Positions 7,560 to 64,000 of a stretch of DNA of 64,000 nt are shown in pieces. Where the stretch lies: NCBI GenBank assembly GCA_963740825.1, contig CAVUFD010000002.1, positions 968,944 through 1,032,943 of the forward strand, written 5' to 3'. The notes beneath the pieces were generated by a model. That model worked only from the letters and a program-made list of their open reading frames with translations. It searched no databases and had not been told where the DNA came from. The translations under genes were made by a program, and so were the position numbers. The stretch is from an uncultured Chloroflexia bacterium (GTDB taxonomy: Bacteria > Chloroflexota > Limnocylindria > Limnocylindrales > CSP1-4). Each line of letters starts with the position of its first letter. The first letter of the stretch is position 1.

Positions 7560-8759
7560 TCAGCTCGCCCAGGCCACGTGCCACACCCGCCACAGGGCCG
7601 CGGGATCGGACAGCGGATCGCCGTGGACGAGGAGGAAGTCCGCCGGCCCGCCCTCGCGGATGACGCCGGCGTCCGGCTCGCCCAGCAGCTCGCCGCCACG
7701 CCAGGTGGCGCTGCCGAGCGCCTCCCACGGCTCGAGCCCGGCGGCAACCAGCTGCTCGACCTCCCAGGCGAGCTGGTTCGCCCGCGTCGAGCCGCCGCCG
7801 AAGTCGGTCCCGGTCGAGATCCGGACGCCGGCCCGATGCGCGATCCCCACCGAGGCCAGCGCCCGCTCGCGCCGCGCGGCCGTCCTCGCCCGGCCCTCGT
7901 CGCTCGCGAAGCGCGGCAGATCGGTGGTCGCGGCGAACGTCTGCCACGACGCCATGACCGACAGGGTCGAGACGAGCCGCACGCCGTTCCGCGCCATGGT
8001 CGCGGCGACCTCATCGTCGAGCTCGAACCCGTGCTCGAGCGCGTCCACGCCCGCCTCGGCCCCCGCGCGCGCCCCGGCGAGGTACCCGGAGTGGGCGGTG
8101 ACCCGCGCACCCCGCGCGTGGACCGCCGCGACCACCGCGCGGAGCGCCTCGACCGGCCACGGTGACGCGTCGAGGTCGGGCCCGTCGAGATAGAGCTTCA
8201 CCAGGTCGGCGCCGTCGTCGAGCTGCGCGATCGCCGCGGCGAGGAGCCCGTCGCCATCGGATGCCTCGATCGACAGCGCCGGCATCAGGCCGCTGGCCAT
8301 GATCCACGTCCCCGCCGCGCGCACGTGCGGGTAGCCGGGCCGGCCCCGCCATCGATCACGAATACCGATTGCGAGTGCCCGCTCGCGCCCGCCGTCCTCC
8401 GGGTCGGCACGCCGCACCGAGCCGACGTCGCGCGCCCAGCGCACGCCCGCCCGGGTCAGCAGCCGCGCGTTCGCCTCGGCGACGGCGAGCAGGCGCGCCG
8501 TTGGGTCCGAGCCGCGGTCGATCCAGTGCGCGCCGCCCGGCATCGTCAGGTGGCTGTGGGCATCGACCATCCCGGGCACGATCGTCGAGCCGGACGCGTC
8601 GACAACCTCGGTCGCTCCGCCATCACCGACCGGGCCTTCGTCGTCGGCGGGACGAATCCAGGCCACGCGCCCGTCATCGACCAGGATCGAAACGCCCCGC
8701 TCCAGCCGGTCGGTCCGCCCGTCGGCGAGCACCCCGTCACGGTAGAGGCGCGAAAACAC
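7560..8759 (-). CDS. Amidohydrolase family protein (imidazolonepropionase/prolidase-like)
   Basis: PGMVDAHSHL, VKLY, TAHS, EHG, GTDFG, G-x-I-x-x-G-x-x-AD. Confidence 0.9.
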   Translation of the reverse strand: MFSRLYRDGVLADGRTDRLERGVSILVDDGRVAWIRPADDEGPVGDGGATEVVDASGSTIVPGMVDAHSHLTMPGGAHWIDRGSDPTARLLAVAEANARLLTRAGVRWARDVGSVRRADPEDGGRERALAIGIRDRWRGRPGYPHVRAAGTWIMASGLMPALSIEASDGDGLLAAAIAQLDDGADLVKLYLDGPDLDASPWPVEALRAVVAAVHARGARVTAHSGYLAGARAGAEAGVDALEHGFELDDEVAATMARNGVRLVSTLSVMASWQTFAATTDLPRFASDEGRARTAARRERALASVGIAHRAGVRISTGTDFGGGSTRANQLAWEVEQLVAAGLEPWEALGSATWRGGELLGEPDAGVIREGGPADFLLVHGDPLSDPAALWRVWHVAWAS

Positions 8760-14144: not shown

Positions 14145-15545
14145 TCAGGATTCCTCGCCGACCCCGGCCTCTCGTGTGACCACGCTGTGGCTTCTCTCAT
14201 CCGCGTCTCGGCCGGCGGAGCCGGCAGGGGCCATCGCGCGCAGGACGACCGTGAAGCGCGCGCCGCCTCCGGCGGGCGAGCTCGCCTCGATGCTGCCGCC
14301 GTGTGCCTCCACGATGCGTCGCGCGATCGCCAGCCCCAGCCCCGTGCCACCCGAGCCGTGGCGCGTGGTGCCCGGCAGCCGGGTGAACGGCTGAAAGATC
14401 CGCTCGAGCTCCGCGGTCGGAATGCCCGGTCCGCCGTCCTCGACGTCGATCGTCACGCTGCGCCCCATGGTCAGGACGCGGACCGTGACCGGCGCGCCAG
14501 CGGGCGAGTGGTCCACCGCGTTGTCGATGAGGACGAGCAGGACCTGGACGATGCGGTCCGGGTCGGCCATCGACCAGGCCGCGCCTTCGCCCGCGTCGAC
14601 GTTGAGTGGCACGCCTCGTTCGGCGGCCATGGCCGCCGCTCCGCGGACGGTTTCGCGGGCAATCGAGGCGACGTCGACGGGCACCGGCGTGATCGTCGTC
14701 CGCATCTCGTCCCACGCCGATAGTTGCAGCAGGTCTCCGACAAGGCCGCCGAGCCGGTCGGACTCGCCGATGATGTCGGTGAGGAGCGGACCGCCGTCGG
14801 ATTCGACCAGGTCCTCACGCTGCAGCACCTCGGCATTGGCACGGATCAACGCGGCGGGTGTCCGAAGCTCGTGGGACGCGTCCGCAACGAACCGTCGCTG
14901 TGCGGCGAATCCCTCCCGGATGGGGCCGAGCGCCCGGTCGGTGACGAGCAGCGTGATCAGCGCGGCGGCGATCAGTCCCATCGCCCCGACGGTCACGACG
15001 GCGAGCACGAGGCTGCGCGACTGGCTGTCGTGCAGGTCGAGGACGAATCCGCCCTGGACGAACCCGACGATGGCGCCGTTGCGGATCACAGGAACGGTGA
15101 GCAGGCGGAAGCTGTGGCCACCTGCCTCGATCGTCCGCAGGTCTTCGCCGGCGGTCTTCGCTCCGGCGAGGACCTTCGCATCCGGCAGGCCCGCGATCGT
15201 CCGACCCGAGGGGTTCTGGACAACCTTGCCGGTTGGGTCGAGCACGAGCAGGAAGGTGTCCGCCGCAGCCGGGGGACGCTCGTCGGCCTCCGGGGTCTCG
15301 GTGCGATCCTCACCGTTCGTCGCTGTCCCGCCGTCGGTGGCCGACGTCTCCGCCGTCACGCCCGCCGCCTGGGCCGCGACCGCCGCCCGGAGCGCGTGGT
15401 CCACATCGGCATCGAGGGCGGCGAGGCCCATGATCGCCGTCGCGGAGCCCACCCCCACGACGAGCAGCGCCAGCAGGCCGAGCGTGACCGCGAACAGGCG
15501 CCGCCTGGTCCGGCGGACGAGCCGCTCGGAATGGCCGATCGCCAC
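14145..15545 (-). CDS. Membrane sensor histidine kinase (HisKA/HATPase)
   Basis: Two TM, FVADASHELRTP, NAVDH, DGGPGI, GTGLGLAI. Confidence 0.95.
   Translation of the reverse strand: MAIGHSERLVRRTRRRLFAVTLGLLALLVVGVGSATAIMGLAALDADVDHALRAAVAAQAAGVTAETSATDGGTATNGEDRTETPEADERPPAAADTFLLVLDPTGKVVQNPSGRTIAGLPDAKVLAGAKTAGEDLRTIEAGGHSFRLLTVPVIRNGAIVGFVQGGFVLDLHDSQSRSLVLAVVTVGAMGLIAAALITLLVTDRALGPIREGFAAQRRFVADASHELRTPAALIRANAEVLQREDLVESDGGPLLTDIIGESDRLGGLVGDLLQLSAWDEMRTTITPVPVDVASIARETVRGAAAMAAERGVPLNVDAGEGAAWSMADPDRIVQVLLVLIDNAVDHSPAGAPVTVRVLTMGRSVTIDVEDGGPGIPTAELERIFQPFTRLPGTTRHGSGGTGLGLAIARRIVEAHGGSIEASSPAGGGARFTVVLRAMAPAGSAGRDADERSHSVVTREAGVGEES
14185..14203 (-). promoter_or_regulatory. Candidate response-regulator site, copy 1 (upstream of ferredoxin)
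   Basis: CTGTGG-cttct-CTCATCCG; 15/19 identical to 16277-16295. Confidence 0.5.
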
Positions 15546-15549
15546 CGCG

Positions 15550-16224
15550 TCAGCCCTCGGCCTTGAGCGTGTACCCGACCCCGCGCACGGTCCGCAGACG
15601 GGTCGCCCGGTCGAGCTCGCCGAGCTTGCGCCGAAGGTAGGACACGTAGAGGTCGACCACGTTCGAATAGACGTCGGGCTCGGCGCCCCAGACCTGGTCG
15701 AGGATCTGCTGGCGGGTCACCACCTGGCCGGCATGCCGGATGAAGAAGCCGAGCAGGGCGAACTCGCGAGCCGACAGATCCACGGTCCGATCGCCGACGA
15801 CCGCGACGTGGCGGAGGCCGTCGAGGGCGAGGTCGCCCGCGGCGAGGCGTCCGTTGACCGCGGGAGCGGGCCGCCGGCCCAGGGCGCGCACGCGGGCCAG
15901 CAGCTCGGCGAACGCGAACGGCTTGGCGAGGTAGTCGTCGGCGCCGGCGTCGAGGCCGGCGACCCGGTCATCGACGGTGCCCAGCGCCGTGAGCATCAGC
16001 ACCGGCGCCGAAACCCCCTTGGCTCGGAGGAGCCGCAGCACGGTGACCCCGTCGATGTCCGGCAACAGTCGGTCAAGGACGATGACCTCGGGCTCGCTCT
16101 GCGTCGCCAGCGCGATGGCGCCGACCCCGTCCGGCGCGACGTCGACGATGTGGCGCTCGGCGACCAGGACGCGCTTGATCAGCGCGGCCATCTTCGGTTC
16201 GTCTTCCACCACGAGCACATGCAT
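15550..16224 (-). CDS. OmpR/PhoB-family response regulator
   Basis: VLVVEDE, VLDRLLP, GADDYLAKPF, LRTVRGVGY. Confidence 0.95.
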   Translation of the reverse strand: MHVLVVEDEPKMAALIKRVLVAERHIVDVAPDGVGAIALATQSEPEVIVLDRLLPDIDGVTVLRLLRAKGVSAPVLMLTALGTVDDRVAGLDAGADDYLAKPFAFAELLARVRALGRRPAPAVNGRLAAGDLALDGLRHVAVVGDRTVDLSAREFALLGFFIRHAGQVVTRQQILDQVWGAEPDVYSNVVDLYVSYLRRKLGELDRATRLRTVRGVGYTLKAEG

Positions 16225-16276
16225 CGGCTGCAGTCTGCGGGCCCGCGGGGGCAGGGTCGAGGGCCATTGGCCCTGT

Positions 16277-16295
16277 CTGTGGAACTTCTCATCCG
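16277..16295 (-). promoter_or_regulatory. Candidate response-regulator site, copy 2 (divergent promoter region)
   Basis: CTGTGG-aactt-CTCATCCG. Confidence 0.5.
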
Positions 16296-16367
16296 GGCCA
16301 TACCGGTCGTTTCGGGCGACGGCGCGACGATCGGAGCCGTTACCTCCCTGTACGGAGTCCGTCACCG

Positions 16368-16649
16368 ATGGTTCAGCGCGTCGCCCTGTTCATCGCCAGC
16401 CTTACCGCAGCCCTGGCCCTGGCGGCCGGCCTTGCCCTTAGCGGTCTCGCACCCGCCGCCGAACCGGCCCCGGTCATTGCCGAGGTGGCGCCGGCCGCCA
16501 CGGACGCTGCGCCCGAGCCGACCGTCCAGGTCGACACCGTCTACGTCACCCCGAAGGTCAAGCCCAAGCACGTCACGGTGAACCGGACCGTCAGGTCGGG
16601 CTCGACGGGCGAGGGAGAGCACGAGGGCGGGGGCGGGGACGACCGATGA
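16368..16649 (+). CDS. Small secreted or anchored protein with acidic/His tail
   Basis: N-terminal hydrophobic segment; ends RSGSTGEGEHEGGGGDDR; ATGA-coupled to next gene. Confidence 0.75.
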   Translation: MVQRVALFIASLTAALALAAGLALSGLAPAAEPAPVIAEVAPAATDAAPEPTVQVDTVYVTPKVKPKHVTVNRTVRSGSTGEGEHEGGGGDDR

Positions 16650-17092
16650 GGGAGCCCCGATCGGTGCGCGAAGATCCAGCCCGACCCCGAGACAGGTCGC
16701 GTCCGTCACCCGCGCGCCCCGTTCCGGCCCGCCCGGCCGGGGCACCGCGATCTGCCGCTCTGCCGAGGCCCGAGCCCGTTCGCAATCGGCCGGACCCAGG
16801 ATCCATGAGAATGCTGATCGTGTTCGGCGGGATCGCCTCCGCGTCGGCGCTCGCGGCGGCCATGATTCCATCGGTCGCGCCTCCGACCGACGCCGCTCGC
16901 GGTGGGTCGGCGCTGACCGCCGATCAGGCGATCGGCACGGTGGCGCCCGCACCATCGGTACGCCACGTCACCCGCTACGTCGTGCTGAAGCCCGGTCAGA
17001 CGGCACCACCCAACGCGCCCGTCCTCGTCCGCCCCACGCCGACGCCACGGGTCACCGTCGTCACCCGGACCCGACAGTCCGGGAAGCCGTGA
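16646..17092 (+). CDS. Small single-TM Pro/Thr-rich protein
   Basis: TM MLIVFGGIASASALAAAMI; ends VTVVTRTRQSGKP; coupled on both sides. Confidence 0.7.
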   Translation: MREPRSVREDPARPRDRSRPSPARPVPARPAGAPRSAALPRPEPVRNRPDPGSMRMLIVFGGIASASALAAAMIPSVAPPTDAARGGSALTADQAIGTVAPAPSVRHVTRYVVLKPGQTAPPNAPVLVRPTPTPRVTVVTRTRQSGKP

Positions 17093-18015
17093 TGGTCGCG
17101 AGCGACGTCGGCGGTGCCGCGTCTGCGGAACGCCCGATGATGGGTGGCCAGGTCTCGGTGCACCTGCGCGGCGTTCCCATGGGAGTCGCCGGGGCCGACC
17201 CGGCGGAGCGGGTCCTCGACCGGATCGCGGCGTGGGCGCATCGCCTCACGCGCTTCGAGCCCACCTCGGACCTGATGCGCCTCAACGGGGCAGGCGGTGC
17301 ATCCGTCCGCGTCGGCCCAACGCTGACCGCGGTGCTCGACTGGGCACGCGAGCTCGAGGGACGGACCGACGGGTACATCGATGTCGCGATGCTCGATGCC
17401 CGCGTCGCGGCTGAGGCTGGTGAGCCGATCGAACCTCCGGCAGCTGCTGCCAGACGCTGGTCGCTTCGCCGGTTGCCCCGTGGAGCGATCGTGGAGCGCC
17501 CGCCCGGCCTCCAATTCGACCTCGACGGCGTCGCGAAGGGGTGGCTTGCCGACCGCGCCCTGGCCATCGCGCCGGGGCAATCGGCGATGGTCGATGCCGA
17601 CGGCGACATCGCAGCTCGGATCGCCAGCGGTGACTCGTGGGCCGTCGGCGTGGCGGATCCGCGCGATCATCCGGACGGGCTGCTCGCGGTCGTGCGGCTG
17701 GCCGCGCCCGGCTCGTGCGGCACGATTGGGCTCGCCACGTCCGGGATCAGCGTCCACCGCTGGGATCGGGCGACCGGCCCCGCCCACCACCTTATCGATC
17801 CCGCGACCTGGCGGTCGGTCCAGACGGACGTCGTCCAGGCGACCGTCCTCGCGGAGAATGCGCGCCTGGCGGAGGGGTTCGCCAAAGTCGCGGTGATCTC
17901 CGGCGCCGCCGATGCCTTCGAGCTGGCGAGCCGCCCCGGCGTCCACGGGCTCCTTGTGCTCACGGCGACGGGCGAGGTCCGCGCGAGCGAAGGGATGGGC
18001 CGATGGCTGGCATGA
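17089..18015 (+). CDS. apbE: FAD:protein FMN transferase, no signal peptide visible
   Basis: TRFEPTSDL, DLDGVAKG, ATSG, HHLIDP. Confidence 0.92.
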   Translation: MMVASDVGGAASAERPMMGGQVSVHLRGVPMGVAGADPAERVLDRIAAWAHRLTRFEPTSDLMRLNGAGGASVRVGPTLTAVLDWARELEGRTDGYIDVAMLDARVAAEAGEPIEPPAAAARRWSLRRLPRGAIVERPPGLQFDLDGVAKGWLADRALAIAPGQSAMVDADGDIAARIASGDSWAVGVADPRDHPDGLLAVVRLAAPGSCGTIGLATSGISVHRWDRATGPAHHLIDPATWRSVQTDVVQATVLAENARLAEGFAKVAVISGAADAFELASRPGVHGLLVLTATGEVRASEGMGRWLA

Positions 18016-18692
18016 CGTATCGGGGCTTCGACTCGCGCACCTCGCTCACGCGCTGGGGCCTCGCGGCGGTGGCCATCGGGATCGTCGGTGGGGCGACGCT
18101 CCCGGGTGCGCTCGGTGGTGTCGCCGCCGTGGTGGACGGCAACCGGGCGAGTCTGCCGTGGCTGTTCGAGCGGTTGTTCGCGTTGCTCGCCTACCTGGCC
18201 TTCACCGGATCTGTGGTCTACGGCCTGCTGCTATCGACGAAGGTGCTCGACCACCTCGCCCATCGACCCGTCTCATTCCTGCTCCACAAGGACCTCGCCG
18301 CGATCGGCGTGGGCCTCGCCGGAATCCACGGAATGCTCCTCGGACTCGACCACACCGTGCCCTTCTCGTTGGCGCAGATCCTGGTGCCTGGCATCGCTCC
18401 CCACGCGACGCTCGCCGTGGCGTTCGGCCAGGTCGCCCTCTACCTCGCGCTCATCGTGACTGGCAGCTTCTACGTCCGTCGCCGAATCGGCCATCGGGCC
18501 TGGCGGGCGCTCCACTATCTGACATTCCTCGCCTTCATCGGCGCGACCGTCCACGGCCTTGCGGCGGGGACTGACAGCGCAGCGGGGTGGGCGCAGGGCA
18601 TGTACCTCGCTGCAGCGACGGTGGTCGCATTCCTGCTCGTCTATCGGATCGTTGTATCGATCGGTCAGCGGCTCGTGTCAGCCCCAGCGTGA
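18012..18692 (+). CDS. Ferric-reductase-like (MsrQ-like) di-heme b membrane protein
   Basis: Four TM His (LHKDL, IHGM, LHYL, VHGL); WRALHY; AGTD. Confidence 0.85.
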   Translation: MTYRGFDSRTSLTRWGLAAVAIGIVGGATLPGALGGVAAVVDGNRASLPWLFERLFALLAYLAFTGSVVYGLLLSTKVLDHLAHRPVSFLLHKDLAAIGVGLAGIHGMLLGLDHTVPFSLAQILVPGIAPHATLAVAFGQVALYLALIVTGSFYVRRRIGHRAWRALHYLTFLAFIGATVHGLAAGTDSAAGWAQGMYLAAATVVAFLLVYRIVVSIGQRLVSAPA

Positions 18693-57977: not shown

Positions 57978-58117
57978 CGGCGTCCTCCGGTGCAGGGCTC
58001 GACACGCCCAGTTTGGCGGGTGACGGAACCTCTCGCGCCTTCAAATGAACGCTCCTCGCGACGAGGTGACCAGTAGAGTTGGACGGCGCCCCCGCTCGGC
58101 GCACCAGAGGCCGAGCA

Positions 58118-58672
58118 GTGGATCGCGATCTCGTCGAGGCGGCCCAACGCGGCGACAGGGAGGCATTCGTCGACCTGGTTCGTCCGCGCGCCGACCACCT
58201 CTACGCGGTCGCACAGCGGATCCTCCGCGACGTCGATCGGGCCGAGGATGCTGCACAGGACGCGCTGGTGATCGCCTGGCGTGACCTGCGGGCACTCCGC
58301 GATCCGGACCAATTCGACGCGTGGCTGCAGAAGGTCCTGATCAACGTCTGCATCCGACACGCGGGCCGGGAACGGCGTCGCTTGGCGAACCTCCGAGCGC
58401 TGCCGATCGACGGACCGGTGGCGCCCGACCCGGACATCATCACGATCGCCGATCGGGATCAGCTCGAGCGTGGGTTCCGCCGGCTATCGGCCGATCAACG
58501 GGTCGTCCTCACCCTGCACCATTTCGCGGGCTATGCCCCGGGCGAGATCGCCGAGATCCTCGGTGTCCCGCCGGGGACGGTCCGCTCGCGACTTCACAAC
58601 GCCCATCGCGCCCTGCGGGCCGCCCTCGAGGCGGACGCGCGCGCCCAGGTCCTCGGAGGTCGTCCGGCATGA
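58118..58672 (+). CDS. ECF sigma factor (copy 3)
   Basis: GDREAF, AEDAAQDAL, WLQKVLINVC, GTVRSRLHNA. Confidence 0.95.
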   Translation: MDRDLVEAAQRGDREAFVDLVRPRADHLYAVAQRILRDVDRAEDAAQDALVIAWRDLRALRDPDQFDAWLQKVLINVCIRHAGRERRRLANLRALPIDGPVAPDPDIITIADRDQLERGFRRLSADQRVVLTLHHFAGYAPGEIAEILGVPPGTVRSRLHNAHRALRAALEADARAQVLGGRPA

Positions 58673-59541
58673 CTCGCGAGCGGGACATCGAGCGCCTCCT
58701 CGACGCCTGGTTCGCCGATGGCCCGGCGCAGCTCGCCGACCACGTCTTCGATGAGGCCGTCGGGCGCGTCCACCGCCAACGCCAGCGACCCGCGTGGCGC
58801 TTCCTGTGGAAGGAGCTCCATGTGACCACCCAGCTCAAGGTCGCGCTCGGCGCGGCCGCCGTCATCGTCGTCTTCGTCGCGGGCTTCGCCATGCTCGGGC
58901 CCGGTGGCCGGATCGGTGGGGTCGACCTCCCGACCGCGTCTCCAGCGCCATCGCCGTCGCGGACCCCATCGCCGCCGCCGCTGCCCGACGGGCGCCTGAA
59001 CGCCGGTGACTACGCCCTGCGTGCGCTGCCGGACGACCCCATGGCCTTCACCATCACGGCCCCCGGCGGCTGGACGGGCTACGGCGGGTTCTTCATCGGT
59101 GGCCCCAGCCTGTCGGATGCCCCGAGCGGGATCGGGATCTCCGTCAACCACGACCCGCAGGTGGTCACCGACCCGTGCGACTCATCCGTGCACACGCCTT
59201 CCCCTGCGTCGAGCGTGCCGTCCATCGACGACCTGGTCGCGGCGATCTCCGCCCGCGGGGACATCGAGGTCTCCGGGGTGACGGACGCCGAGCTCGCCGG
59301 CTACTCAGGCAAGCGCTTCGATGTGCAGTTCCCGGCGGAGCTGGCGTGCGCCAAACACTACCTGTTCGCGGAGCCGAAGGGCCTGTACGCGAACGGCCCG
59401 GCGAACCATTGGCGGGTCTGGCTGGTCGACGTCGACGGTGAGACAGCTGTCGTCGTGCTCCTCGATTACGCGGGAACGCCGACGGCGGACCGCGACTCGG
59501 CGCAGGCGGCGATCAATTCGATCCGGATCACGCGCCAGTAG
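58669..59541 (+). CDS. Membrane anti-sigma-like protein (copy 3)
   Basis: ATGA-coupled to sigma; DAWFADGP, TM, PT linker, extracytoplasmic domain. Confidence 0.75.
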   Translation: MTRERDIERLLDAWFADGPAQLADHVFDEAVGRVHRQRQRPAWRFLWKELHVTTQLKVALGAAAVIVVFVAGFAMLGPGGRIGGVDLPTASPAPSPSRTPSPPPLPDGRLNAGDYALRALPDDPMAFTITAPGGWTGYGGFFIGGPSLSDAPSGIGISVNHDPQVVTDPCDSSVHTPSPASSVPSIDDLVAAISARGDIEVSGVTDAELAGYSGKRFDVQFPAELACAKHYLFAEPKGLYANGPANHWRVWLVDVDGETAVVVLLDYAGTPTADRDSAQAAINSIRITRQ

Positions 59542-59694
59542 CGCGCCTGGCTGCCGAACGGGCGGGCCTCCGGTCCGCCCGTCCGGCGCCGCGTTCCGAG
59601 GGTCGGTTCCGACGCTCGCACTGCCGGTCGATGCGCACCCGACCGGTCCATGCCCACCCCGGGGTTCGCGGCGCGAGGATTCGCGTTTATCGGA

Positions 59695-59716
59695 TCGTTC
59701 CAGGTACGCGGAACGA
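59695..59716. repeat. Inverted copy of the TCGTTCC-N8-GGAACGA palindrome
   Basis: Reverse complement TCGTTCCGCGTACCTGGAACGA is 19/22 identical to the array unit. Confidence 0.75.
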
Positions 59717-59781
59717 GGTGCCGCAGCACGCCGGCAGCCGATACGTGGCGGTGCAACCTCGATCGTCAGGATGGCGTCGTC

Positions 59782-60099
59782 ATGGCCAGGCGGAACGGCA
59801 CCGGGATCGCGCTGCTCGCCGACGAGACCAGGCGACGAATCGTCGCGCTGCTCGCCGCGCAGCCGCGCCGGTCGTCGGCGATTGCGGCGGAGCTCGGGTT
59901 GAGCCGCCCAGCGACGAGCCGCCAGCTCCGGCTCCTCGAGGAAGCCGGACTGATCTGGGCGTTTCGGTCGCGCCTTGACGGTCGCGGCATCGTCTACCGC
60001 ATCAACCCGTCGGCGCACGGCCGGATCATCGCGTGGCTCGCCGGCACCGAGGTCGGGCTGCCGGGATCGGGTCAGTCCAGCCGAAGTCGTTCCGCTTGA
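59782..60099 (+). CDS. ArsR/SmtB-family HTH regulator
   Basis: LLADETRRRIVALL, SRPATSRQLRLLEEAGLI. Confidence 0.85.
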   Translation: MARRNGTGIALLADETRRRIVALLAAQPRRSSAIAAELGLSRPATSRQLRLLEEAGLIWAFRSRLDGRGIVYRINPSAHGRIIAWLAGTEVGLPGSGQSSRSRSA

Positions 60100-60290
60100 T
60101 TGCCAACGTCGTTCCGCGTGCTTGGAACGACCGCGATCCTGCACTTGCTCGCCCTGCGGACGCGCCGTCGCCCACGGGCACCCGTGGTCGTTCCGCGTGA
60201 TTGGAACGACCGCGATGCTGCACTTGCTGGCCCTGCGGACGCGCCGTCGCCCACCGGCACCCAAGGTCGTTCCGCGTGATTGGAACGACC
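60086..60290. repeat. 79-bp-period tandem repeat with a palindromic head (REP/operator-like)
   Basis: GTCGTTCCGCGTG(A/C)TTGGAACGACC at 60108, 60187, 60266; degenerate copy at 60086; units differ at 6 of 79 positions. Confidence 0.9.
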
Positions 60291-60363
60291 AGGAATCAGC
60301 GCAGGTGCGCGCTGCCGACCGACGGTCGAGGGCGAGCGACCTCCGCCAGGCGAGCGACCTCGG

Positions 60364-61560
60364 CTAGAGGTTCCCGCGCCGCGCCTGTTCCAGCTCGATC
60401 GCCTCGAACAGCGCCTTGAAGTTGCCCACGCCGAAGCCCCGCGAGCCGTGGCGCTCGATGATCTCGAAAAAGAACGTCGGGCGGTCCTGGATCGGCCGGG
60501 TGAAGATCTGGAGGAGGTAGCCCTCCTCGTCGCGGTCGGCCTCGATCCCCAGCTCCTCGAGCACGTCCATCGGGACCCCGACGTCGCCCACGCGGTCGCC
60601 CAGCGACTCGTAGTAGGCGTGGGGCATGCCCAGGAACTCGACGCCGTTGTCCCGCAGCCGGCGCACCGTGCCCACGATGTCCTCGGTCCGCAGCGCGACG
60701 TGCTGCACGCCGGGCGTGTGGTACCAGTCGAGGAACTCCTGGATCTGGCTCTTCTTCTTGCCCGTGGCGGGCTCGTTGATCGGGAACTTCACCCGGCCGT
60801 TGCCGTTGGTCATGACCTTCGACATGAGCGCGCTGTAGTCGGTGTGGATGACCTTGTCGTCGTAGTGGATGAGCTGGGCGAAGCCGAACACGTCGCGGTA
60901 GTAGTCCACGAACCGGTTCATGTCGCCGAGCCCGACGTTGCCGACGCAGTGGTCCACCTCGAGCAGGCTGAGGCCCGATGCGGCCCTGGCCGGCCTCTTG
61001 ACCTTGCGATAGCCCGGCGCGAAGGCGCCATGGTAGTCGCGACGGTCGACGAAGCTGTGGCGCACCTCGCCGTAGGTCCAGACCGCGCTTCGTCGCAGGA
61101 CCCCTTCCTCGCCGCCGTCGAGCTCGACCGGCTCCATCGCGGACCGGGCGCCGCGGGAGGTGGTCTCGCGCCACGACGCCGCCGAGTCCTTGACCGCGAA
61201 CGCGATGTCCCGGACGCCGTCGCCGTGGGCGCGCACGTGCTCGGCGATCTCGCCGTCGGGCGTGAGCGGCGCCGTCAGCACGATCCGGATGTCGTGATGC
61301 TGCATGACGTAGCTGGCCCGGTCGCGGACGCCGGTCTCGAGCCCCGAGAAGGCGACCGGCGTGAAGCCCCAGAGCGCGCGGAAGTAGGCGGACGCCTGGC
61401 GGGCGTTGCCCACCCAGAACTCGACGTGGTCGATGCCGTCGAGCGGCAGGAAGTCCTTGGCCTCCGCGAACGCGTCGGCGTTGAGATGAGCTCCCGACTG
61501 GTTGGCGACGGGCGTGCCGACCGGGCCGGCCTGGCCCGGGCGCGAGGCTGTATCGGTCAT
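60364..61560 (-). CDS. hppD: 4-hydroxyphenylpyruvate dioxygenase
   Basis: IDHVEFWVGNA, HGDGVRDIAF, DHCVGN, QHVAL, LLQIFT, FFEIIER, GFGVGNFKALF. Confidence 0.97.
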   Translation of the reverse strand: MTDTASRPGQAGPVGTPVANQSGAHLNADAFAEAKDFLPLDGIDHVEFWVGNARQASAYFRALWGFTPVAFSGLETGVRDRASYVMQHHDIRIVLTAPLTPDGEIAEHVRAHGDGVRDIAFAVKDSAASWRETTSRGARSAMEPVELDGGEEGVLRRSAVWTYGEVRHSFVDRRDYHGAFAPGYRKVKRPARAASGLSLLEVDHCVGNVGLGDMNRFVDYYRDVFGFAQLIHYDDKVIHTDYSALMSKVMTNGNGRVKFPINEPATGKKKSQIQEFLDWYHTPGVQHVALRTEDIVGTVRRLRDNGVEFLGMPHAYYESLGDRVGDVGVPMDVLEELGIEADRDEEGYLLQIFTRPIQDRPTFFFEIIERHGSRGFGVGNFKALFEAIELEQARRGNL

Positions 61561-61722: not shown

Positions 61723-62025
61723 ATGAGCTCCAACGACAACGGGCGCGCCGAGGCTCGAACCCGAGCCAACCGCCGGCTGCGCAGGATGACGATCGGGACG
61801 ACGATGCTCGGCCTGGCGGCGACGGGCACCCTCGGCTGGCTGGCCGGCGTCACCGACAACGGGACGACGGCGATCGGGGCCGAGACGGCGATCGTGACGG
61901 ACTCCACGTTCGCGTCGACCGGATCCATCTCCTCGACGACCACGACGTCGACGACGCGCGCCGCGACCGCCCCGACGGTGACCACGACCACCGGCAGTGG
62001 CCATGCATCGAGCGGCGGCTCGTGA
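61723..62025 (+). CDS. Small Thr/Ser-rich exported protein with RR-containing signal-like N-terminus
   Basis: RANRRLRR + hydrophobic segment; ends TTTTGSGHASSGGS. Confidence 0.75.
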   Translation: MSSNDNGRAEARTRANRRLRRMTIGTTMLGLAATGTLGWLAGVTDNGTTAIGAETAIVTDSTFASTGSISSTTTTSTTRAATAPTVTTTTGSGHASSGGS

Positions 62026-62026
62026 C

Positions 62027-62980
62027 GTGATCGACCAGGTCGAATGGCGAGCGCTCGGGACGGGGGTCCGCGTGGTCGTGCTCAACGGGGACCTGCCGGC
62101 GGCTCGTGCCGCGGTGGACGGCGTGCTCGCGGACGCCGACCTGGCGTACAGCCGGTTCCGGGCCGACTCCGAGCTCACGGGCGTCAACGCGCAGGCGGGC
62201 CGGACGGTCGTTGTCAGCGCCACCCTCGCTCGGGCGATCGATGGCGCCCTCGATGCGGCGCGCCGCACCGGCGGGGCGGTCGACCCCACCGTCGGCCGCG
62301 CCATGCGCCTCATCGGCTATGACCGTGACTTCGACCTGATCGCGGGCTCAAGGCGCCCCCTTGAGCTCCACATGGAGCCCGTACCGGGCTGGTCGGTGGT
62401 CTCGTTCGACGCTCGGCGCCGCTCGCTCCGCGTGCCTCGGGGCGTCGAGCTCGATCTCGGGTCCACCGGCAAGGGGCTCGCCGCCGACCGTGCGGCAGGG
62501 TCCGCCTTGACGGCTGCCGGCCCGGGAGCCGGCGTCCTCGTCAGCCTGGGCGGGGATATCTCGACCGCGGGCCTGGCTCCCGATGGTGGCTGGCGGATCC
62601 TCATCGTCGAGGACAGTCGGACGCCCCCCGATGGCGACGGCGAGCTGATCGCGATCCACCAGGGAGCCGTCGCGACGTCGAGCACCACGGTGCGACGCTG
62701 GCAGTCGCTCGACGGGGTCAGCGTCCACCACATCGTCGACCCGCGCACGGGTACCCCGGCTTCGACGCATTGGCGCACCGCCTCGGTCGTGGCCGCCAGT
62801 GCGGAGCTGGCCAACGCGGCGTCGACCGCCGCGATCGTCATGGGCGATGCCGCGCCGGACTGGCTGCGTGACAACGGCGTGGCGGCCCGTCTCGTGGCGA
62901 ACGACGGCGGCGTGACCCGCCTCGGCGGATGGCCGGCGCCCGACGGGATGGTCGCGGGCTCCGCTCCGTCATCGGACTGA
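62027..62980 (+). CDS. apbE: FAD:protein FMN transferase, no signal peptide visible
   Basis: SRFRADSEL, DLGSTGKG, SLGGD, ATSS, HHIVDPRTG. Confidence 0.92.
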   Translation: MIDQVEWRALGTGVRVVVLNGDLPAARAAVDGVLADADLAYSRFRADSELTGVNAQAGRTVVVSATLARAIDGALDAARRTGGAVDPTVGRAMRLIGYDRDFDLIAGSRRPLELHMEPVPGWSVVSFDARRRSLRVPRGVELDLGSTGKGLAADRAAGSALTAAGPGAGVLVSLGGDISTAGLAPDGGWRILIVEDSRTPPDGDGELIAIHQGAVATSSTTVRRWQSLDGVSVHHIVDPRTGTPASTHWRTASVVAASAELANAASTAAIVMGDAAPDWLRDNGVAARLVANDGGVTRLGGWPAPDGMVAGSAPSSD

Positions 62981-63019
62981 AAGGTCCCGGACGCGACACT
63001 CGGCGCGAAACCGTTACCA

Positions 63020-63056
63020 GGGCGCGGGGTCACGTTCCTCCTTCGACCCCGCGCCC
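63020..63056. other. Intra-operon stem-loop with pyrimidine loop
   Basis: GGGCGCGGGGTC-acgttcctccttc-GACCCCGCGCCC, 12-bp stem. Confidence 0.7.
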
Positions 63057-63073
63057 GTCCTCCGGAGACGCCT

Positions 63074-63676
63074 TTGATGTTCGACCAGGTCCTGTGGTTC
63101 GCCACCCGAGGCGCGGGCGCGGTGTCGCTGATGATGTTCACCGCGGCGACCTGTCTCGGGCTCGTGACGGTGACCCGGTTCCAGGCGGCGGGCTGGCCCC
63201 GCTTCTTCAACTACGAGATGCACCGGCGGGTATCCCTGCTGTCGATCGTGTTCCTCGCGGTCCACGTCCTGGCTGCTGTCTTCGACCCGTTCACATCCCT
63301 GGGGCTCGGCGCGGCCCTGGTGCCCCTCGCATCGACGTACCGGCCCCTCCCGGTCGCCCTCGGCGTCATCGCCCTCTACCTGTTCGTCGCGCTGATCGCG
63401 ACGAGCCTCCTGCGCAAGCACATCGGCCAGCGGACCTGGCGCCTCGTCCACTGGTCGTCGTACGCGATGTGGCCGCTGGCCGTGCTCCACGGGCTGACCG
63501 CGGGCACCGACGGCTGGTCGACGTGGATGCTTGGCATCGACGTCCTGTGCGTCTCGGCGGTCGCGGCCTGCCTCGCCTGGCGGGTGATGGCCGGCAATCC
63601 AAATCGGAGCCAGCTCGCCGGCATCGTCGCGACGTCGTCGTTGGATGCCCGGGCGCCACGACGGAAGGCCCGATGA
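63074..63676 (+). CDS. Ferric-reductase-like (MsrQ-like) di-heme b membrane protein
   Basis: WFATRGAG, MHRR, VHVL, WRLVHW, LHGLTAGTD. Confidence 0.88.
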   Translation: MMFDQVLWFATRGAGAVSLMMFTAATCLGLVTVTRFQAAGWPRFFNYEMHRRVSLLSIVFLAVHVLAAVFDPFTSLGLGAALVPLASTYRPLPVALGVIALYLFVALIATSLLRKHIGQRTWRLVHWSSYAMWPLAVLHGLTAGTDGWSTWMLGIDVLCVSAVAACLAWRVMAGNPNRSQLAGIVATSSLDARAPRRKAR

Positions 63677-64000
63677 CCGTGCGCCTCCTCGCCGGCCCGG
63701 CCCTCACGGCCGGTCCCGAGTCGCTCGCCGGGCACCGAGACCGCCTCGGGCTCATCCCCCAGCAAACCGCGATCTCGGCAACCACGGCCATGCTCGAGGC
63801 GTCCGGCCTGCTGGGCCGCGGCGGAGCCGCCTTCCCCGTCGCCCGCAAGTGGGCCGCGGTCGCCGAGCGTCGGTACGGCGACGCGATCGTCCTGGCCAAC
63901 GGCGCCGAGGGCGAGCCCCTGTCGGTGAAGGACCGGGTTCTGATGGCGACCCGACCGCATCTGGTGCTCGATGGCGCGGAGCTGGCGGCCGACGCCGTGG
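63673..64000 (+). CDS. NuoF-like (Complex I 51-kDa) flavoprotein, partial
   Basis: SGLLGRGGAAFP, NGAEGEP..VKD, PHLVLDG; ATGA overlap; runs off window. Confidence 0.9.
   Translation, partial: MTVRLLAGPALTAGPESLAGHRDRLGLIPQQTAISATTAMLEASGLLGRGGAAFPVARKWAAVAERRYGDAIVLANGAEGEPLSVKDRVLMATRPHLVLDGAELAADAV

Follow-up and report, generated by a model that had tools for sequence, protein, structure and literature searches.

Gene content of an ApbE locus in a Chloroflexota genome

We analysed a 64,000-nucleotide (nt) stretch of DNA from an uncultured Chloroflexia bacterium, referred to here as the window (G+C content, 72%), and in particular a locus at its end that encodes a small membrane protein next to an ApbE-family protein. 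Four tightly packed genes occupy positions 61723-64000 of the forward strand: a small open reading frame (ORF), the ApbE gene, a gene for a Ferric_reduct (MsrQ-like) membrane protein and the 5′ part of a NuoF-like gene (Table 1). The last two are joined by a 4-nt ATGA overlap. A first-pass annotation, made from the letters alone, had listed these elements, and all of them were present where it had placed them: a small protein with NRRLRR (residues 16-21), a hydrophobic segment, a Thr-rich stalk and an SSGGS end; an ApbE without a signal sequence, which has only about six residues ahead of the first domain strand and an intact HHIVDP; a cytochrome b-like protein with four His residues; and a NuoF-like subunit recognisable by its PF01512 match and GRGGAAFP. 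The independent Logan assembly L001 was 100% identical over the four genes, indicating that the frame relationships at the locus are not sequencing errors. No riboswitch for flavin mononucleotide (FMN) or other RNA element scored above the gathering score at the locus, and no terminators were found inside the operon. The nearest relatives of the locus were metagenome-assembled genomes of Chloroflexota (Candidatus Limnocylindrales and 'uncultured Chloroflexia'), not of Actinobacteria.

Table 1. Features of the ApbE locus and of other regions of the window, with positions counted from the first nucleotide of the window (aa, amino acids)
Feature	Positions	Strand	Evidence or remark
Small protein, 100 aa	61723-62025	+	ORF with homologue clusters; AF2, one helix
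Basic N-terminal region, residues 1-21	61723-61785	+	Net charge +5; family-invariant R18-L19-R20 in alignments
Hydrophobic Gly/Ala/Thr-rich helix, residues 22-43	61786-61851	+	KD19 hydropathy; proposed signal-anchor, N-in/C-out
Variable Thr/Ser-rich linker, residues 44-93	61852-62001	+	19 Thr and 7 Ser per 50 residues
C-terminal heptapeptide HASSGGS	62002-62022	+	Family consensus; proposed FMN acceptor site, Ser100 as putative acceptor
ApbE-family protein, 317 aa	62027-62980	+	PF02424, E=1.3e-50
HHIVDP of ApbE	62726-62743	+	
Asn263 of ApbE	62813-62815	+	
Ferric_reduct / MsrQ-like membrane protein, 199 aa	63077-63676	+	PF01794, E=1.6e-8; four His
NuoF-like gene, 5′ part, 109 codons, cut by the window end	63673-64000	+	PF01512, E=1.7e-18; GRGGAAFP
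First ApbE locus	14145-18692		
First locus, kinase	14145-15545	-	Divergently transcribed
First locus, response regulator	15550-16365	-	Divergently transcribed
First locus, small membrane ORF	16805-17092		GTGA overlap with ApbE
First locus, signal-less ApbE	17089-18015		ATGA overlap with Ferric_reduct
First locus, Ferric_reduct gene	18012-18692		
ORF of 419 aa	18736-19995	-	Amidohydrolase-like by appearance
ECF sigma factor	58079-58672		
ECF sigma factor region with anti-sigma-like ORF	58079-59541		
ArsR-type gene	59650-60099		
Related inverted copy (see 60103-60344)	59695-59719		
Three tandem 79-nt units	60103-60344		
HPPD-like dioxygenase	60364-61533	-	Divergent from the small ORF

The small protein belongs to an undescribed family

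The small ORF is a real gene and a member of an undescribed family. A word-based search returned 25 clusters of homologues of about 100 residues, and a profile search of 1.84 billion representatives enlarged the family to 224 clusters (E<=1e-3). No family in Pfam or NCBIfam matched the protein, and a description of the peptide family was not found in literature searches. One member carries the JGI annotation 'anti-sigma factor RsiW', a label that we rejected because no domain match in Pfam or NCBIfam backs it. All family members share an architecture of a basic N-terminus, one hydrophobic Gly/Ala-rich segment, a variable linker and a strongly conserved C-terminus. Conservation in the alignments was highest over the N-terminal 47 residues, where R-L-R precedes T-x-G across the family and T23, I24, G25, T26, G30, G35, G38 and A41 are conserved in the helix. 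The linker is rich in Ser, Thr, Ala and Pro, and both its sequence and its length differ among members. AlphaFold2 (AF2) modelled residues 6-43 as a single continuous helix and the rest as disordered, with low confidence.

The Thr-rich linker, with its runs of ACC/ACG codons, was prone to frameshifts in assemblies (P0008, P0019, P0037, P0049 and P0205). These frameshifts yielded false C-termini (...RPRIERRLLR) and one false peptide-ApbE fusion of 456 residues (P0205/L021:3001-4371), which was discarded on account of a 1-nt frameshift in the linker; the genuine end, ...HASTGGT and stop, could be read in the other frame. Extra copies of the small protein were found either downstream of the histidine kinase or as a tandem copy ahead of ApbE (L003:15398-15769, L020:8001-8384 and L019:~7620-7996). 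Their tails read AHVSSGGS, HATTGGSAP and GQATSGGS, respectively, so that some systems have two tagged peptides.

The C-terminal tail lies in register with the ApbE flavinylation motif

The tail was analysed in 137 family sequences, which had been selected by a pattern requiring Gly at position -2 relative to the putative acceptor; in alignments made without that filter this Gly (G98) was also invariant. Position -6 was His in 112 and Gln in 17 sequences and never Asp, position -5 was Ala or Val, and position -4 Ser or Thr. Thr (84) and Ser (53) shared position -3, while position -1 was Gly in 127 cases, Ser in 7 and Ala in 3. The acceptor position itself (position 0) was Ser in 136 sequences and Thr in one, and it was the very last residue in 103 of them, with one or two residues beyond it in the other 34. 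The resulting consensus, H/Q-[AV]-[ST]-[ST]-G-[G>S>A]-S, was the most conserved feature of the small protein after the N-terminal helix.

ApbE recognises D-x-x-[S/T]-G-A-[S/T] and modifies the last residue of this motif, for which seven residues suffice, and flavin tags function best at a protein terminus (PMC12052999). Flavinylation of terminal tags is complete in E. coli cells that produce a signal-less ApbE (PMC9400968). The tail lies in register with D-x-x-[ST]-G-A-[ST] and agrees with it at -3, -2 and 0. SSGGS had initially been described as one residue away from [ST]GA[ST], which is correct for Gly in place of Ala at -1, a conservative difference; over the full motif, the tail also departs at -6, where it has His and not Asp. 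In a test protein, flavinylation was little affected by the D-to-A change at -6 and dropped to about 50% with G-to-A or A-to-V (PMC12052999), which suggests that -1 and -6 are tolerant positions. Rare members of the family end in the canonical ...TGAS or ...SGAS, and two of these, P0090 and P0151, also lie directly upstream of ApbE. No conserved [ST]G[AGS][ST] was found in the other proteins of the operon (Ferric_reduct, ApbE, NuoF-like, ferredoxin, response regulator and kinase). Comparative evidence supports the small protein as the only candidate ApbE substrate in the operon.

The end of the small ORF also lies where a ribosome-binding site of ApbE would be expected. The Gly-Gly codons of the tail (GGC GGC in the window; GGA GGA in L007 and L011) stand 8-9 nt ahead of the ApbE start, within the stretch 62011-62029, and probably double as its Shine-Dalgarno sequence (GGAGGA in L007 and L011), which would place the tail under a dual constraint. 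As a full explanation of the conserved tail, a Shine-Dalgarno sequence of the form GGNGGN was rejected. Ser at -3 is coded by AGC, TCC or TCT (Thr by ACC) and Gly by GGC, GGG or GGA; the His is conserved; and the tail is retained where no ApbE follows, as in L012 and in the paralogues of L003 and L020. The synonymous changes, the switches between AGC and TCN codons for Ser and the persistence of the tail without ApbE indicate that selection acts on it at the protein level.

The neighbouring ApbE is signal-less, coupled to the small ORF and divergent at its metal site

The ApbE protein matched PF02424 with 172.8 bits, against a cut-off of 25.6 bits, over profile positions 1-264 of 266, and its relatives in the PDB were TM1553 (5e-30) and Ftp of T. 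pallidum (Ftp_Tp; 3e-22). Neither a signal peptide nor a hydrophobic N-terminus was present in any of its 120 closest homologues (at least 63% identity), 66 of which have only six residues ahead of the first strand. Similarly, the NCBIfam ApbE model (351 positions, E. coli-type) aligned from position 37, past the region of the lipoprotein signal. Cytosolic ApbEs are already known (PMC12052999).

Translation of ApbE most likely starts at GTG 62027, 1 nt after the TGA of the small ORF. The ORF could also open at GTG 61997 or ATG 62003; we favoured 62027 because it is the gene call of the collection and because the orthologues cannot extend further upstream. In the 17 loci with both genes, the distance from the small-ORF stop to the ApbE start was always between -4 and +2 nt, while the relative frame varied by clade (+1, +2 or an overlap of 1-4 nt). 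Close spacing combined with clade-specific frames points to translational coupling rather than to a broken fusion. Such a fusion, a single gene split by a frameshift, was rejected, given the same arrangement in the identical independent assembly and in the 17 loci.

Alignment to Ftp_Tp showed that S240, R245 and H256 are conserved. The last of these is the catalytic His (H257 in Vc), which lies within HHIVDP (residues 234-239) and is conserved in the homologues, as is the Mg-binding Thr (T288; 119 of 119 homologues scored). The first-pass annotation had missed that the Mg-binding Asp (D284) is replaced by Asn263; all 119 homologues have Asn at this position. In addition, E244 is replaced by Arg. 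The D284A mutation abolishes both activities of T. pallidum Ftp. That the Asn is as invariant as the catalytic His and the Thr suggests an enzyme under constraint, active but divergent.

A conserved operon links the peptide and ApbE to a predicted cytochrome b and a two-component system

Gene order in related genomes indicates that the window locus makes up the 5′ half of an operon that is conserved among Limnocylindrales-type Chloroflexota. The order of the operon is small peptide, ApbE, MsrQ-like cytochrome b, NuoF-like protein, ferredoxin, response regulator and histidine kinase, often with GtrA and PMT_2. L003 shares the upstream genes of the window (Lipoprotein_15, DUF2269, an ArsR-type regulator and an HPPD-like dioxygenase). 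Downstream, both L002 and L003 have a full NuoF-like gene (374-413 aa), a 91-aa Fer4_15 ferredoxin, an OmpR-type response regulator and a HisKA kinase whose outer loop spans about 120 residues, followed by unrelated genes. The order is kept in the more distant loci L018, L019, L020 and L021.

Component counts were obtained from the 14 related loci long enough to show downstream genes. The response regulator and kinase were present in all 14, the NuoF-like protein and ferredoxin in 7, and a PMT_2/YkcB_C glycosyltransferase, usually with GtrA, in 10. In the clade formed by L006-L008, L010, L011, L014 and L015, the two-component system directly follows the cytochrome gene. Since the NuoF-like protein and ferredoxin occur in half of the loci, we take the peptide, ApbE, cytochrome b and two-component system as the invariant core and the NADH module as optional. 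Neither the window locus nor any of the 14 related loci contained an FMN_bind gene (PF04205). The first-pass annotation would have counted a canonical FMN_bind gene just downstream against its own interpretation; none stands there in the syntenic relatives L002 and L003, and such a gene just past the window end was rejected on the basis of the downstream genes in these two loci.

The PMT_2 gene, with YkcB_C and usually after a GtrA-like protein, stood beside the operon in L006, L008-L012, L014, L015, L018 and L019 (for example, L010:5148-7882 and L018:13342-15306). The glycosyltransferase was absent from the flanks of L002 and L003, the closest relatives of the window, and from the window. Enzymes of the protein O-mannosyltransferase (PMT) family glycosylate on the outer face of the membrane, and the PMT_2 glycosyltransferase may O-glycosylate the Ser/Thr-rich stalk of the peptide.

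The four His residues of the Ferric_reduct protein form the pairs His49/His63 and His125/His138, each 13-14 residues apart, on two helices, and none of the four varied among the 13 orthologues compared. The protein also has basic loops (residues 33-49 and 112-124) and a basic C-terminus, which are predicted to lie on the cytoplasmic side. From these features, the protein is predicted to be a di-haem cytochrome b that would provide a two-haem conduit across the membrane. Full-length orthologues of the NuoF-like protein have 374-425 aa with PF01512 and PF10589 and are followed by the Fer4_15 ferredoxin. The neighbours of the gene are Ferric_reduct and the ferredoxin, with no adjoining nuoE or nuoG; we therefore call the protein NuoF-like and do not equate it with NuoF of complex I, even though both domains are present. 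The orthologues at L002:12072-13196 and L003:11946-13187 read ...QCGPCVFG..., with further Cys residues close by, at the position where NuoF has C-x-x-C-x-x-C. The wire from NADH through the NuoF-like protein and cytochrome b to a flavo-peptide, as first drawn for this locus, agrees with the known MsrQ-like/NuoF-like clusters (PMC8238504); it does not extend to the 7 of 14 loci in which the NuoF-like protein and ferredoxin are absent.

Predicted topology and route of export

The net charge ranged from +4 to +9 in the N-terminal part and from 0 to -6 in the C-terminal part of the family members analysed. From this charge distribution and the single helix, the small protein is predicted to have its N-terminus inside and its C-terminus outside. 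An outside location of the linker agrees with its Ser/Thr-rich composition and with the recurrent PMT_2/GtrA genes. A signal-less ApbE and an outside tail would together imply that modification precedes translocation.

The compartment problem posed by a signal-less ApbE would disappear if the tail were flavinylated and stayed in the cytoplasm, with the hydrophobic segment peripheral or re-entrant and FMN feeding the inner haem with electrons from the NuoF-like protein and ferredoxin, or from another donor, as FAD (flavin adenine dinucleotide) does in NOX and STEAP. The relatives of Ferric_reduct of the NOX type use a cytoplasmic flavin, and the segment is Gly-rich and weakly hydrophobic in the window copy and its clade, with a maximum KD19 hydropathy of 1.12. 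The family median of 1.66, however, is typical of a membrane-spanning helix, and the charge asymmetry predicts the N-in/C-out orientation. The AF2 model, at its low confidence, contains one continuous helix and no hairpin, and the Ser/Thr/Pro/Ala-rich linkers, together with the linked PMT_2 genes, point outside. The relationship between NOX and Ferric_reduct is noted in the survey of MsrQ-like clusters, in which the flavinylated partner is extracytosolic (PMC8238504). We consider a cytoplasmic tail unlikely.

According to the first-pass annotation, FMN would be attached to the peptide in the cytoplasm and Tat would export the loaded peptide, or ApbE would be co-exported. The window copy does contain two Arg-Arg pairs (NRRLRR), in the context RRLRRM where Tat motifs resemble [ST]-R-R-x-F-L-K, its ApbE has no signal peptide, and its hydrophobic region shows the low hydrophobicity and Gly/Thr richness that are associated with Tat signal peptides. 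Across the family, however, consecutive Arg-Arg occurs in 67 of 137 members (49%), the conserved elements being R-L-R and T-x-G instead, and the clade L006-L011, L014 reads ARLRK in place of the pairs. A loose Tat regular expression matched 3 of the 137 members, and no Tat-signal profile in Pfam or NCBIfam matched the small protein. The strong conservation of the N-terminal 47 residues is unlike that of a disposable signal. The cargo would be an unfolded peptide, for which Tat is unnecessary and insertion by Sec or YidC is favoured. No evidence was found for co-export of ApbE, and nothing backs a stable ApbE-peptide complex. Export through Tat was not supported, and we rate it as the least probable of the explanations considered here; in the window's own clade, which has Arg-Arg and a weakly hydrophobic segment, it keeps a small probability.

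A model of cytoplasmic flavinylation followed by export

Gene content, synteny, motif conservation, the absence of signal peptides and the invariant His residues were observed directly and form the starting point of our best reading, to which we give a probability of roughly 45%: FMN would be attached to the tail in the cytoplasm, and Sec or YidC would then carry the tail outward, where it would be a tethered flavin and the acceptor of the MsrQ-like cytochrome b. The parts of this reading that go beyond those observations, from flavinylation and topology to the sequence of events, the path of the electrons and their acceptor, would be as follows. The 100-aa peptide would be a single-pass membrane protein with its basic N-terminus in the cytoplasm and its Ser/Thr-rich linker and tail facing outward, and its last seven residues, H-A-S-S-G-G-S, would serve as a natural minimal flavin tag. 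ApbE, signal-less and translationally coupled to the peptide, would use cytoplasmic FAD to attach FMN to the terminal Ser through a phosphoester bond. Attachment would precede the passage of the short, unstructured C-terminal part through Sec or YidC, for which Tat would not be needed; the FMN adduct would have to pass this route. Outside, the outer haem of cytochrome b would reduce the tethered FMN, on a stalk that is possibly O-glycosylated. NADH, the NuoF-like protein and ferredoxin would feed cytochrome b, and clades without the latter two would use another donor, for example quinol. Finally, FMN would hand its electrons to an extracytoplasmic acceptor. A complete version, in which an Asn-type cytoplasmic ApbE loads FMN on the last Ser of a domain-less peptide of about 100 residues that is then exported and acts as an O-glycosylated, tethered flavin fed by cytochrome b, appears rather unlikely to hold in all its parts.

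Several points weigh against cytoplasmic flavinylation followed by export. At two positions the tail does not follow the canonical motif: -6 has His or Gln for a 'strictly conserved' Asp, and -1 has Gly for Ala. The acceptor would be Ser, which is less favoured than Thr (PMC12052999), and usually a Ser that is the very last residue. Part of the nucleotide conservation of the tail may be owed to the Gly-Gly codons acting as the ApbE Shine-Dalgarno sequence. With Asn standing in for D284 and Arg for E244, the ApbE may not be active as an FMN transferase. The helix closes with a conserved [LVI]-A-[AG], a possible signal peptidase site, at which cleavage would release the peptide instead of leaving it tethered. 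Lastly, we know of no citable direct precedent for an FMN-bearing tail crossing the membrane via Sec or YidC.

The departures at -6 and -1, the overlap of the Gly-Gly codons with the Shine-Dalgarno sequence and the altered ApbE residues, considering the loss of Ftp_Tp activity in D284A, also favour an explanation in which the small protein is not flavinylated. Its tail would instead bind or regulate ApbE, act as a ligand of the outer sensor of the kinase, or signal glycosylation or processing, while the Asn-type ApbE would have its substrate encoded at another locus or have an altered or lost activity. Roles in sensing or glycosylation would fit the presence of the two-component system in all 14 loci and of PMT_2 in 10 of them. 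This explanation is confronted with a seven-residue match in register, with the S/T variation at -3 and the G/S/A variation at -1 expected of an ApbE site, and with the variants ending in GAS. Moreover, the invariant catalytic His and Mg-binding Thr of the ApbE subfamily argue for an active enzyme, and none of the 14 loci encodes another candidate substrate. A peptide that is not an ApbE substrate is, in our view, rather unlikely, although it is the strongest of the competing explanations.

The putative signal peptidase site leads to another explanation. A41 and A42, each conserved in at least 90% of the sequences, lie directly ahead of x-[ST]-Y-x-G in a stretch that we take to resemble a signal peptidase I site. 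Cleavage after [LVI]-A-[AG] would set free an FMN-peptide of about 57 residues, which would be soluble and would shuttle electrons as a secreted molecule. For a cleavable signal peptide, however, the basic and hydrophobic regions are long (20 residues each), and the N-terminal regions are more conserved than the 'mature' part, unlike in ordinary signal peptides. A released shuttle is, on this evidence, very unlikely.

Comparison with known flavinylation systems

Clusters with an MsrQ-like gene, apbE and a NuoF-like gene have been catalogued before, 31 of them in one survey (Meheust et al., eLife 2021, PMC8238504). The MsrQ-like clusters of that survey 'typically include' an FMN_bind gene, the flavinylated partner being outside the cytosol, and components without signal peptides were discarded (PMC8238504). 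The locus described here has PF01794 beside apbE, by which such clusters were defined; it has neither a gene for an FMN-binding domain nor a signal peptide on ApbE or FMN_bind. It resembles those clusters in combining apbE with a PF01794 protein of the six-helix, two-haem type and a NuoF-like protein (PF01512/PF10589) as presumed NADH-oxidising donor, and in the proposed transfer of electrons from the cytosol to a flavinylated partner outside (PMC8238504). In contrast, FMN_bind, DUF2271 and DUF3570 are absent, their place being taken by a 100-aa peptide with a terminal heptapeptide; ApbE is signal-less; a ferredoxin and a two-component system, often also GtrA/PMT_2, are linked; and the host belongs to the Chloroflexota rather than the Actinobacteria. 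Because published surveys demanded a signal peptide on ApbE or FMN_bind, systems of this kind would have escaped them, and flavinylation-based electron transfer in Chloroflexota has perhaps been under-counted.

The putative tag itself is most similar to the engineered Flavin-tag, in which a seven-residue terminal peptide is enough and works C-terminally, in the cytoplasm and with a signal-less ApbE (Tong et al.; PMC12052999; PMC9400968). The engineered version keeps Asp at -6, Ala at -1 and a Thr acceptor (e.g. GVDGLSGATLTS), whereas the natural tail, H-x-[ST]-[ST]-G-G-S, is a putative substrate. Signal-less ApbEs using cytosolic FAD also act on the fumarate reductase of Klebsiella pneumoniae and, as the ApbE domain of FRD, in trypanosomatids (PMC12052999); the substrates there are folded, soluble cytosolic reductases, unlike a membrane peptide whose tail is predicted outside. 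In flavinylated FMN reductases the acceptor Ser likewise lies on a C-terminal extension (Huang et al., mSystems 2024, PMC11334425), but their FMN folds back into a flavoprotein pocket, and the small protein has no folded domain. The system of Listeria, PplA/FmnB, shares with the one proposed here a membrane-tethered, covalently flavinylated carrier outside a single-membrane cell (PMC9973259; PMC8238504). PplA differs in being a lipoprotein with folded FMN_bind domains, FmnB in being extracytosolic and needing exported FAD, and the donor is Ndh2/EetAB/quinone and not a Ferric_reduct cytochrome.

The ApbE substrates described in the papers cited here carry the flavin on or within larger proteins (FMN_bind, NqrB/RnfD, DUF2271, DUF3570, flavodoxin-like proteins and reductases). 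A family of more than 200 clusters in which a seven-residue terminal tag is the sole conserved extracytoplasmic feature would show that nature uses the minimal tag of the engineers, and it would pose the testable question of whether the cofactor is attached to an unfolded tail in the cytoplasm and then exported. If modification inside followed by export is true, FAD export would not be needed, and the peptides would constitute a new class of ApbE substrate with a new order of events. The Asn-for-Asp change at the metal site and the His/Gln-for-Asp and Gly-for-Ala changes in the motif would also offer a natural enzyme-substrate pair for the study of ApbE specificity.

A first ApbE locus and other features of the window

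Another ApbE locus, the first in the window, shares the layout of small membrane ORF, signal-less ApbE and Ferric_reduct. Its small protein ends in ...TRTRQSGKP, with no flavinylation-like motif, and in its ApbE the D284 position is Glu and the T288 position Lys. The first-pass annotation had contrasted the two loci by their cytoplasmic donor modules; this comparison does not apply, as the first locus has no adjacent NAD(P)H-binding or donor module at all. It is followed by a convergent ORF of 419 aa.

Upstream of the locus studied here, the ECF sigma factor gene is followed by an overlapping anti-sigma-like ORF with a membrane segment. The HPPD-like gene and the small ORF are divergent, an arrangement that is kept in L002 and L003 and not in the distant loci. 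Between the ArsR-type gene and the 3′ end of the HPPD-like gene lie three tandem 79-nt units, with 92% and 66% identity to the reference copy, each of which starts with the palindrome GTCGTTCCGCGTG.TTGGAACGAC; a related inverted copy is present at 59695-59719 (Table 1).

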